Part shown: positions 3,492-28,010 of the stretch, one piece after another
Position numbering within the stretch: the first letter of the stretch is position 1
Layout of the letters: the number at the start of each line of letters is the position of its first letter
Origin: Candidatus Aenigmatarchaeota archaeon
Lineage (GTDB): Archaea > Aenigmatarchaeota > Aenigmatarchaeia > CG10238-14 > SpSt-28
NCBI GenBank assembly: GCA_049414645.1
Contig: JBMSAV010000113.1
Location: 1 to 28,529 of the forward strand
DNA: 28,529 nucleotides
Reading direction: 5' to 3'
The notes under the pieces: model-generated
The model's input: only the letters and a program-made list of their open reading frames with translations
What the model was told of the DNA's origin: nothing
Database searches by the model: none
Made by a program: the position numbers and the translations under genes

Positions 3492-3615
3492 GCGGGGGTC
3501 GCCTAGCCTGGTCGATGGCGGCAGGCTCAAGTAAGGTTTTCTTGAGCTTTGATGAGATGATGAGAAGAAACCTGCTGGGTTAGTCCCTTCGTGGGTTCAA
3601 ATCCCACCCCCCGCA
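3492..3615 (+). tRNA. tRNA-Leu(CAA) with a 38-nt intron at 37/38 (3532-3569)
   Basis: GCGGGGG/CCCCCGC acceptor, A73, GCAGG/CCTGC anticodon stem, CT-CAA-G|A loop, and archaeal Leu-type variable arm T-GGG-TTAGT-CCC-TT-C. Confidence 0.9.
3541..3563 (+). ncRNA. putative intron-encoded box D'/C' (K-loop) guide element targeting C34
   Basis: Guide CTTGAGC pairs with G31-G37. D'-like TTGA at 3549-3552 and perfect C box ATGATGA at 3557-3563. The fifth nt upstream of D' (G3544) pairs with C34. Confidence 0.6.
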
Positions 3616-6802: not shown

Positions 6803-7264
6803 ATGGAAAAGATAAACTTGATTATTGATGCGGGAAAAGCGAATCTTGGGCAGCTTTCGAGTAAGATAAGTTCTTTAGGTTTTAATGTCAGTGAAATTCA
6901 AAAAGAGATTAACGAAAAAACAAAAGAGTTTTCCGGGTTAAAAGTTAATGTTATCGTGATTTTGGATAAGGACAATAAGAAATATGAAATAAAAGTTAAA
7001 GCTCCTAGTGTTGCTGATTTGGTTAAAAAAGAGCTTGGTGTAGAATTGCTTAAACTTAGCGAAGAAGAAAAGCAAAAAGGCAAAAGTTTTATTGGAAATT
7101 TAACGATGAAACAAGTTGAAAAGATAGCAAAGATAAAGGCTGAAGAATTTGGAGAAAAAGATTTGAAGAAAGTTTTGAAGATGGTTATTGGATCTATAAA
7201 TACATTGCAAGGAGTTTTGATAGAGGGTAAGAAGCCAAAAGAAATTTTAAAAGAAATACAATAA
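6803..7264 (+). CDS. rpl11: 50S ribosomal protein uL11 (divergent N-terminal domain)
   Basis: INEKTKEF, LVKKELG, IGNLTMKQVEKIAKIK and GKKPKE motifs. SD GTGAGG precedes ATG 6803; conserved position after spt5. Confidence 0.88.
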   Translation: MEKINLIIDAGKANLGQLSSKISSLGFNVSEIQKEINEKTKEFSGLKVNVIVILDKDNKKYEIKVKAPSVADLVKKELGVELLKLSEEEKQKGKSFIGNLTMKQVEKIAKIKAEEFGEKDLKKVLKMVIGSINTLQGVLIEGKKPKEILKEIQ

Positions 7265-7270
7265 ACTTTT

Positions 7271-7722
7271 TCATCTTTTCGCTAGGTTCTCATATATCTG
7301 ATTATAAGCGAATGCAAATTTTCCTAAAGAATGCGTCCTTATTAGCTATATCCTCGCTTTCGCTGAATACTTTTTCATTTCCTCGTATTTTTTTATAACC
7401 ATCAAAATAGCAGCTTTTAGATTATTTACCCTTTCCAAATAATTATCGGAAAATTTCTCTCGTGTAATGTATTTACTATGTATATTCTTCTGATGCAAAA
7501 ACATCACAGCTAACTGACGGTATCCATTATAAATCTCTTGGTTTCTGATTTCGTACACAAGTTTTCCTGGTTACCTATAGTTCTCATAAACACCAATTTC
7601 GGAAAAACTCATAACCAAGTTTTTTCTAAGTAAGAAGCGTAGCTTCTTATATAAGTAGTTACTCCTCCGTATAAACCTTTACTACCACATGAAACAATCA
7701 AAATCTTTCTTCTTTTATCTAT
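7271..7722 (-). pseudogene. degraded, internally deleted GT4-like glycosyltransferase remnant
   Basis: Reconstruction: RKILIVSCGSKGLYGGVTTYIRSYASYLEK/LGYE (frameshifts at runs 7620-7625 and 7603-7607), stop at 7571-7573, the 70-aa ORF, stop at 7346-7348, then LIRTHSLGKFAFAYNQIYENLAKR. The ends resemble GT4 N- and C-termini. Confidence 0.5.
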
Positions 7723-19466: not shown

Positions 19467-19601
19467 GCCGGGGTCGCCTAGCCTGGTCGATGGCGGCAGT
19501 GCCATTGTCGAAGCTTAAGTGCTGGCTAGGCACATAAGCTCAGATTAATGAAGAAACCTGCTGGGTTAGTCCCTTCGTGGGTTCAAATCCCACCCCCGGC
19601 A
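19467..19601 (+). tRNA. tRNA-Leu(TAA) with two introns: 30/31 (19500-19512, 13 nt) and 37/38 (19520-19555, 36 nt)
   Basis: Body nearly identical to tRNA-Leu(CAA). Removing both segments restores GCAGG-CT-TAA-GA-CCTGC; A73; Leu-type variable arm. Confidence 0.82.
19530..19554 (+). ncRNA. putative intron-encoded box D'/C' (K-loop) guide element targeting U34
   Basis: Guide GCACATAAGC pairs with the anticodon region. D'-like CAGA at 19541-19544 and C'-like ATGAAGA at 19548-19554. The fifth nt upstream of D' (A19536) pairs with T34. Confidence 0.5.
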
Positions 19602-26676: not shown

Positions 26677-27799
26677 AAAAATAATTGAAGAAATAGAAAA
26701 CGTCTCAAAAGAATTTAGGCTAAAAGAAGATAAAAAAGAAAAATTGATTGAAGAAGTAAGAAGGATTTACTTAAATAGTAGATTTGAACCGGGAGAAGCT
26801 ATAGGAATTCTTGCTGCTCAAAGTATTTCGGAACCTGCAACTCAACTTACAATGAGAACGTATCATCTAGCTGGAGCTGCTGGTATTAAAGTAACTTTTG
26901 GTCTACCTAGATTGGTTGAAATATTTGACGCAAAAAGAAATATAGAAACGCCGATGATGACAATATACCTGAAAAAAGAATACAATACTAAAGAAAATGC
27001 AGAAAGGCTCGCGTATAAAATAGTAGAGAGGCGTGTTTTAGATTTATCTAAATATATTTCTATAGACATAGGAGAAAAATGCATTAATATAGAACTTGAA
27101 GACAAGAGAAAAGTTGAAAAGGTAGTGAAATGCATTAAGGCATCCTTGTCAAAAAACTTTGAAGTTAAAGTAAAGGAAGATTATATTAGCATTTATCCTA
27201 AAAGTGAAAATATTCAATTTTCAGACCTACAAAAATTAAAAGAAGAAGTTGGTAATTTAGTCGTAGAAGGAATTGATGGTATAACAGCAGCAATAATAAG
27301 AAAAGAAGATGATAATTGGATTGTACAAACGGTTGGCTCTAATCTAAAGGAGATCTTAAAGTTTGATGAAGTTGATGAACATAAAACGGTTTCTAATGAT
27401 ATTTATGAAATTTATGAAATCTTTGGAATCGAAGCCGCAAGAAATGTTATAATAAAAGAAGCTTATAAAACGATGCAAGAGCAAGGATTGAATGTTGATA
27501 TAAGATACTTACTATTATTAGCAGATGTTATGACATGGAGTGGTGAGATAAGTTCTATAGGAAGATATGGTGTTGCGGGTGCAAAAGCATCTGTTCTTGC
27601 AAGAGCGGCCTTCGAAGAAACAATAAAACATTTAATTAGAGCATCCATTAGAAATGAAGAAGACGAATTTAAAGGTTTGTTCGAAAATGTAATGGTTGGT
27701 CAGCCAGCTCCTGTAGGTACTGGGATGTTCGAATTAATATTTAAGGGTGAGGAATATGAATATAGAGGAAAAAATAAAGGAAGCGATGAAAGAGAATAA
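26666..27799 (+). CDS. rpoA2: RNA polymerase subunit A'' (Rpo1C)
   Basis: [50 protein letters not shown] and [10 protein letters not shown] motifs. Confidence 0.97.
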
Positions 27800-28010
27800 A
27801 GTTATAATTGGATATAGAGAATGTTTAAAATACATAAGAAATAATAATCCCGAAGTCGTAATAATAGCTGAAAACGCGCCAGAAAAAATTAAAAAAATTA
27901 TATTTAATAGTAACGTTAAAGTTGAAATTTTTAAAGGTAGCAGTAAAGATTTAGGAACAATTTGTGGAAGACCTCATCCAATAACAACAGTAACAATAAA
28001 AGGAAGTTAA
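27756..28010 (+). CDS. rpl30e: 50S ribosomal protein eL30
   Basis: [11 protein letters not shown] and [10 protein letters not shown]; SD GGTGAGG precedes ATG 27756; conserved position. Confidence 0.9.

Follow-up and report, generated by a model that had tools for sequence, protein, structure and literature searches.

The window analyzed here is the whole 28,529-nucleotide stretch of DNA from a Candidatus Aenigmatarchaeota archaeon, whose source genome is 595 kb long, 83% complete, and 31% G+C; the public runs that contain it are hot-spring and sediment metagenomes. It holds a tRNA-Leu(UAA) gene with two introns, named 30/31 and 37/38 after the tRNA nucleotides that they separate, and a tRNA-Leu(CAA) gene with a related module (Table 1). 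In-silico excision of 19500–19512 and 19520–19555 yields an 86-nt tRNA-Leu(taa) that ARAGORN accepts. The Rfam tRNA model misses the two-intron gene, and an Rfam scan at gathering and permissive thresholds gave no match to a C/D family.

Table 1. Features of the tRNA-Leu genes of the window and of module-bearing tRNA genes elsewhere in the source genome (contigs prefixed C).
Feature	Position	Strand	Basis or remark
tRNA-Leu(UAA) gene, two introns	19467–19601	+	ARAGORN on the window; in-silico splicing
30/31 intron, 13 nt, no boxes	19500–19512	+	Sequence; relatives
Target strand: nt 31–37 and first three intron bases; wobble T34 = 19516	19513–19522	+	
37/38 intron, 36 nt	19520–19555	+	Sequence, ARAGORN, in-silico splicing
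Antisense (guide) strand GCACATAAGC; A19536 pairs with T34	19530–19539	+	Sequence, RNAfold
One-base spacer, guide to D'-like box	19540	+	T here and in most relatives
D'-like box CAGA	19541–19544	+	
K-loop loop TTA, 3 nt (2–12 nt in relatives)	19545–19547	+	
C'-like box ATGAAGA; G19553 pairs with C19541 (D'1:C'6)	19548–19554	+	
tRNA-Leu(CAA) gene with sister module	3492–3615	+	Intron 3532–3569
Leu(CAA) guide CTTGAGC	3541–3547	+	G3544 pairs with C34 at 3528
Leu(CAA) boxes	TTGA 3549–3552; ATGATGA 3557–3563	+	
tRNA-Gln(UUG) with module	C27:8723–8837	-	
tRNA-Lys(UUU) with module	C42:488–615	-	
tRNA-Arg(UCU) with module	C59:4145–4245	+	
tRNA-Trp(CCA) with module	C81:1892–1991	+	
tRNA-Ser(UGA) with module	C84:1494–1614	+	
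tRNA-Ser(CGA) with module	C70:3909–4018	-	D' degenerate
tRNA-Thr(UGU), hairpin that would aim at nt 39	C68:3408–3507	+	
tRNA-Cys(GCA), hairpin that would aim at nt 39	C31:11048–11150	-	

The 37/38 intron of tRNA-Leu(UAA) folds back on the anticodon. GCTTA (19513–19517, G31 to A35) is paired to TAAGC (19535–19539), A19518 (nucleotide 36) lies opposite A19534, and GTGC (19519–19522), which consists of G37 and the first three intron bases, is paired to GCAC (19530–19533)—a duplex of ten positions with one A.A mismatch. Five bases upstream of the CAGA box, A19536 pairs with the wobble base T19516 (nucleotide 34), and a single base, A19555, separates the C'-like box from exon base A38. The original prediction, drawn from this one stretch of DNA, had listed the pairing, the mismatch, both boxes with their spacer, and the A19536:T34 pair, and every one of these elements is present where it was placed; the guide hairpin is also part of the RNAfold minimum-energy structure.

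The 30/31 intron of the same gene pairs elsewhere: GTCG at 19507–19510 can pair with C25–C28 (19494–19497), leaving a bulge AA/G31 (here and below, a slash within letters marks a splice site), and relatives, which have GYCG or GCTG ahead of AA/G, vary the strand to GCCG or GCTG and keep this pairing. We note that the GTCG pairing has the form of a relaxed splice motif (19494–19513) and would disrupt the D stem.

An archaeal box C/D sRNA has a terminal box C (RUGAUGA) and box D (CUGA) that form a K-turn, and its guide–target duplex is about 10–12 bp long. Two further hallmarks of these RNAs are present in the tRNA-Leu intron: internal D' and C' boxes around a short loop (CAGA, 3 nt, ATGAAGA; box cores in 91/91 relatives), and an antisense element beside D' with its target at the fifth base upstream (A19536:T19516; likewise 91/91). 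The terminal box C/box D pair is absent in the window, where there is only the hairpin loop and the target upstream of the guide, and no second box pair was seen in the introns of the 91 relatives as parsed. Several points count against reading the intron as a guide—there is no terminal C/D pair, so each RNA has one kink motif only; the guides are short; the boxes are degenerate, with A.A at the usual U.U position; and some of the C' box is at the same time the 3' end that these introns normally have. One-sided guides have been found less active in vitro in some archaeal systems. The pairing of guide and target in cis may compensate for the short duplex.

The arrangement stands up to comparison with relatives. 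We searched 118 genomes of the order (Aenigmatarchaeota, DPANN) for Leu(YAA) genes using only the YAA anticodon loop and the Leu 3' exon as a pattern, so that the feature under test played no part in selection; matches in 65/118 genomes gave 96 distinct sequences, 91 with a 37/38 intron and 5 without. The introns range from 22 to 54 nt, and all 91 show the same order of elements: a guide core, one base, NNGA, 2–12 nt, and RTGA plus three bases. The guide core is the complement of nucleotides 32–34 (or more) together with the base opposite G31, and the guides form 4–11 contiguous pairs from nucleotide 31, most often 6–8. The base opposite nucleotide 34 is A in 43/43 UAA genes and G in 48/48 CAA genes, which extends to the relatives the covariation of guide and wobble base (G:C34 versus A:U34) that had been proposed from the two genes of the window. 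The original prediction had called for a covariance model of related Leu introns and would have been refuted by random drift of the motifs among relatives; module-wise parsing and RNAalifold, without a covariance model, instead gave a conserved register, and no such drift was seen, with the register, the GA and UGA cores, and the guide–wobble covariation intact in every one of these introns. In the RNAalifold analysis of 33 aligned relatives, the helix of nucleotides 31–35 has no broken pair and a single compensatory pair, located exactly at nucleotide 34 (CG in 20, UA in 13).

These data bear directly on the simplest alternative, that the box-like strings are products of drift in an A/T-rich intron. 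The boxes are indeed short and degenerate, and the genome is low in G+C; nevertheless, shuffled 3' parts of the introns place both boxes in register in just 1.8% of trials, whereas all real introns do so, the D'1:C'6 pair covaries (see below), and the module is kept across at least four families of the order. The shuffle figures, here and below, ignore the kinship of the relatives and overstate significance because these share ancestry and are not independent samples. Even so, chance resemblance is refuted by the comparative data, and we give it next to no credence; as far as the compared introns can tell, the register of the Leu guide is more than coincidence.

A loose pattern applied at the level of the phylum was noisy beyond the order, with a few real-looking matches in other families of the class (G157, G159). 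When the Leu(UAA) module was sought globally, a conserved Pelagibacter locus with no relation to it predominated among the matches listed, and a Desulfurococcales match is not a tRNA; both searches were set aside. As a separate observation, a sequence from an uncultured archaeon (L130; CAYRSM010000002.1, about 7180–7340, minus strand) encodes a tRNA-Leu(UAA) that is apparently interrupted three times, by a 30/31 intron, by a 37/38 intron that holds the K-loop module, and by an intron in the variable arm.

In box C/D kink motifs, position 1 of box D pairs with position 6 of box C, and the intron boxes can be examined for this pair. The D' box of the 91 introns is TTGA in 48, CTGA in 27, CAGA in 11 (spread over several genera), and one of four rarer forms in 5, while UGA occurs in the C' box of all 91. 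With C' defined beforehand as the first RTGA at least two bases past D', the D'1:C'6 pair is Watson–Crick in 85/91 introns (93%; U-A in 46, C-G in 39), with 3 additional G.U pairs; shuffles average 49%, and 0/10000 reached the observed value. Among the neighboring combinations, D'1:C'5 and D'1:C'7 pair less often than shuffles do on average, D'2:C'6 exceeds that average only slightly, and pairing at D'2:C'5 and D'-1:C'7 showed no enrichment over shuffles in the same introns. Of 29 distinct combinations of D' and C' boxes, 25 pair at D'1:C'6, and the UAA introns of the window's own genus already include switches (CTGA with GTGAAGA, CAGA with ATGAAGA, TTGA with ATGATAA). To judge by these substitutions, the D'/C' covariation has the pattern of a real K-loop pair, and we have little doubt that the K-loop and its selected register are real.

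Both boxes of the Leu(UAA) intron carry A at the usual U.U position, as had been noted, with both G.A pairs and the G-C pair kept; the A residues stand, but the idea of a coordinated A/A change at D'2:C'5 was rejected because pairing there is not enriched over shuffles, and sister sequences combine CTGA with RTGAAGA. Many relatives have the canonical CTGA in place of the window's CAGA, which is a tolerated variant.

Whatever else it does, the intron must be spliced, and the elements of the module overlap those of splicing. The archaeal bulge-helix-bulge has two 3-nt bulges, at the splice sites, separated by a 4-bp helix. In Leu(UAA), the 3' side of the splice conformer offers an AA/A bulge and the pairs C32-G19553, U33-A19552, and U34-A19551; A.G stands in fourth place, and the 5' bulge lacks a distal helix to close it. 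The motif reads as a relaxed bulge-helix-loop form. When the two structures are fixed and scored, the guide conformer has about -12.5 kcal/mol and the splice-motif-like conformer about -4.6, a difference of about 8 kcal/mol in favor of the guide. The strand able to pair with nucleotides 32–35 in the splice conformer, GAAG, overlaps the C'-like box, whose GAAGA is also the usual 3' end of the introns. A useful reference here is the Leu(UAG) gene of the source genome: its 12-nt 37/38 intron ends in GAAGAA/A and has neither a guide nor UGA boxes. The GAAGAA tail can therefore be assigned to splicing, unlike the RTGA core; this core alone is the extra element.

This overlap speaks for a second alternative, in which the K-loop and the anticodon–intron helix are real but serve the folding, protection, or splicing of the pre-tRNA, with no methylation involved; L7Ae might then serve as a chaperone or set the timing of the endonuclease. 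Because the C' box shares its bases with the strand of the splice conformer, box binding and splicing are coupled in any case. Also in its favor, the splice motif is weak, with 3/4 central pairs and no distal helix, each RNA has a single kink motif, and pairing between anticodon and intron is common in pre-tRNAs generally. What it leaves unexplained is the fixed spacing between D'+5 and nucleotide 34, which holds in 91/91 introns of tRNA-Leu and in six or more other tRNAs; moreover, the introns of tRNAs with G34 splice without the module. A purely structural role seems unlikely to us, though it cannot be set aside as chance can.

The location of the module in other introns speaks to the same question. 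Of the five Leu genes that lack a 37/38 intron, four have the guide and K-loop in their 30/31 intron, again with D'+5 facing nucleotide 34. All four are Leu(CAA) genes, from four genera (L048 (G066), L059 (G083), L070 (G028), and L078 (G096)), and one of them reads ACAG / ATCA TTGAGC A CTGA TCA ATGATGT CGAA / G31-CTCAAG. In this layout the guide lies 5' of its target, the reverse of the usual order, and the K-loop caps the hairpin. Since the same nucleotide is addressed from a different intron, which would be hard to account for if the boxes merely came with the 37/38 splice motif, the module does not arise as a side product of that motif; a structural role likewise offers no reason for the same aim with guide and target exchanged.

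The module is also found beyond tRNA-Leu. In the source genome, introns aimed at nucleotide 34 occur in Gln(UUG), Lys(UUU), Arg(UCU), Trp(CCA), and Ser(UGA), and also in Ser(CGA), where the D' box is degenerate (CTTA); the layout is an antisense to nucleotides 31–36, one base, NNGA, a loop, and RTGA. In Arg(UCU) and Trp(CCA), spurious sites reach the same automatic score as the module, and these two were assigned by reading the sequence. The module is absent from the introns of the G34 tRNAs Ser(GCU), Tyr(GUA), Arg(GCG), and Pro(GGG) of this genome, and from those of Arg(UCG), Glu(CUC), and Leu(UAG).

A different arrangement was observed in the introns of Thr(UGU) and Cys(GCA), where a hairpin is capped by a TTGA...ATGA(T/G)AG K-loop and the strand 5' of TTGA pairs with the end of the intron and the 3' exon, so that D'+5 faces nucleotide 39, which is also the second target of the known guide in the tRNA-Trp intron.

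The protein machinery that such RNAs would use is encoded in the source genome. The fibrillarin and Nop5 genes are adjacent on contig C16, and there are two L7Ae-family frames. In the window itself lies a 90-aa frame at 27756–28004 (+) with an L7Ae/L30e family match (PF01248, 62.6 bits); contig C56 has the stronger L7Ae-family match. Fibrillarin is present in 115/118 genomes of the order, and there is accordingly no usable contrast between presence and absence. A search for canonical two-guide C/D sRNAs (box C, D', C', and D; guides of 9–14 nt) found none above shuffled background in the 83%-complete genome, which is weak negative evidence because boxes in this lineage may be degenerate. Two hot-spring metatranscriptomes contain fragments of genes from this organism, but their coverage of the Leu tRNA is about zero, and they yield no evidence on splice sites or on the stability of the intron.

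In our view, the 37/38 intron of tRNA-Leu(UAA) is likely to be half of a box C/D methylation guide in minimal form, acting in cis, with the caveat that there are no methylation, binding, or RNA data. The mechanism we propose starts from what is observed—pairing, register, conservation, K-loop covariation, portability, and the protein genes—and infers protein binding, methylation, and the order of events. Before splicing, intron bases 19530–19539 would pair with nucleotides 31–37 and the first intron bases; as the more stable fold, the guide hairpin and K-loop would form first in the pre-tRNA, with the 5' splice site held inside or at the end of the helix. Directly 3' of the duplex, CAGA and AUGAAGA would fold into a K-loop with tandem sheared G.A pairs closed by C19541-G19553, to which L7Ae may bind, followed by Nop5 and fibrillarin. 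Fibrillarin would then 2'-O-methylate U34 by the box D'+5 rule, and the predicted product is Um34, or a further modified derivative, on tRNA-Leu(UAA). After departure of the RNP, the RNA is expected to refold so that GAAG pairs with nucleotides 32–35 and the 3' splice site comes to lie in the AA/A bulge, whereupon the endonuclease could excise the intron. The RNP would have to leave before the endonuclease acts, because the splicing fold needs the GAAG of the C' box.

The intron could in principle guide after its release instead, as an excised and possibly circular RNA whose targets in trans would be other pre-tRNA-Leu molecules or mature tRNA-Leu. Excision frees the guide strand, circular forms can occur among archaeal tRNA introns and C/D sRNAs (PMC7994747), and the tRNA-Trp intron guide of Haloferax works in trans (PMC4090602, PMC11408192). 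In the window, however, 4/9 guide pairs involve G37 and intron bases (19519–19522), so that the full duplex exists only on unspliced RNA, and at hot-spring temperatures the pairing of a 6–7 nt guide in trans would be weak; we regard action in trans as quite improbable. Guiding in cis, on the unspliced RNA, remains our preferred reading.

Intron-borne guides have a precedent, for which the original paper is reportedly that of Clouet d'Orval et al. in 2001. The tRNA-Trp intron contains a nested box C/D RNA that directs Cm34 and Um39 (PMC4090602, PMC11408192); this guide is known from euryarchaeal pre-tRNA-Trp, as in Haloferax volcanii and as sR50 of Pyrococcus (PMC4090602, PMC11408192, PMC7994747), the median length of tRNA-Trp introns is 65 nt (PMC4090602), and the box C/D intron of tRNA-Trp has been named as the only archaeal intron that itself guides modification (PMC4090602, PMC11408192). 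Like this guide, that of Leu lies inside the intron of the tRNA it targets and is aimed at nucleotide 34 by the +5 rule, and methylation would have to come before splicing; unlike pre-tRNA-Trp, which holds a whole C/D RNA with sites at C34 and U39, the Leu intron has one D'/C' K-loop and one short guide. A second intron-borne case comes from another DPANN archaeon: the elongator tRNA-Met of Nanoarchaeum equitans has a 66-nt intron that resembles a C/D sRNA, with a box C that has one mutation and a consensus box D, and that accumulates as a stable RNA (PMC3491384). It shares with the Leu introns a C/D-like RNA within a tRNA other than Trp, but neither the one-sided K-loop design nor the nucleotide-34 register has been described for it.

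The predicted target has precedents of its own. In Pyrococcus, C/D sRNAs acting in trans have been predicted for wobble methylation of tRNA-Leu(CAA) and tRNA-Leu(UAA) (PMC7994747, PMC7668247)—the same two tRNAs and the same nucleotide; these are separate sRNA genes, whereas the Leu guide is one-sided and forms part of the intron of its target. Bacterial TrmL makes the wobble Nm34 of Leu(CAA) and Leu(UAA), and eukaryotes use Trm7-Trm734 (PMC4033218). The product predicted here, Cm34 or a modified Um34 on tRNA-Leu(CAA/UAA), would be comparable; in contrast to the intron guide, TrmL and Trm7-Trm734 are unrelated enzymes made of protein only, with no RNA guide. A full-text literature search turned up no account of one-sided K-loop guides in the introns of tRNA-Leu.

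The mini-guide of the Leu(UAA) and Leu(CAA) introns, together with its counterparts in several other tRNAs of the source genome, would extend guiding by introns to a set of tRNAs, mostly those reading purine-ending codons of split boxes, and would show that a single K-loop with a 6–10 nt guide in cis may suffice for the fibrillarin machinery. It would also tie an archaeal route to the Leu wobble methylation of bacteria (TrmL) and eukaryotes (Trm7). More tentatively, many tRNA introns of Aenigmatarchaeota could be one-sided K-loop guides, portable between the 37/38 and 30/31 positions and aimed at nucleotide 34 or, in tRNA-Thr and tRNA-Cys of the source genome, perhaps 39; this generalization is possible, though for now we would not count on it. 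If the absence of canonical two-guide C/D sRNAs from the source genome is real, the fibrillarin machinery here would work to a large part as an RNP with a single K-loop. The persistence of archaeal tRNA introns is an old unsolved question—guiding of this kind, if true, would give a selective reason for retaining these introns.
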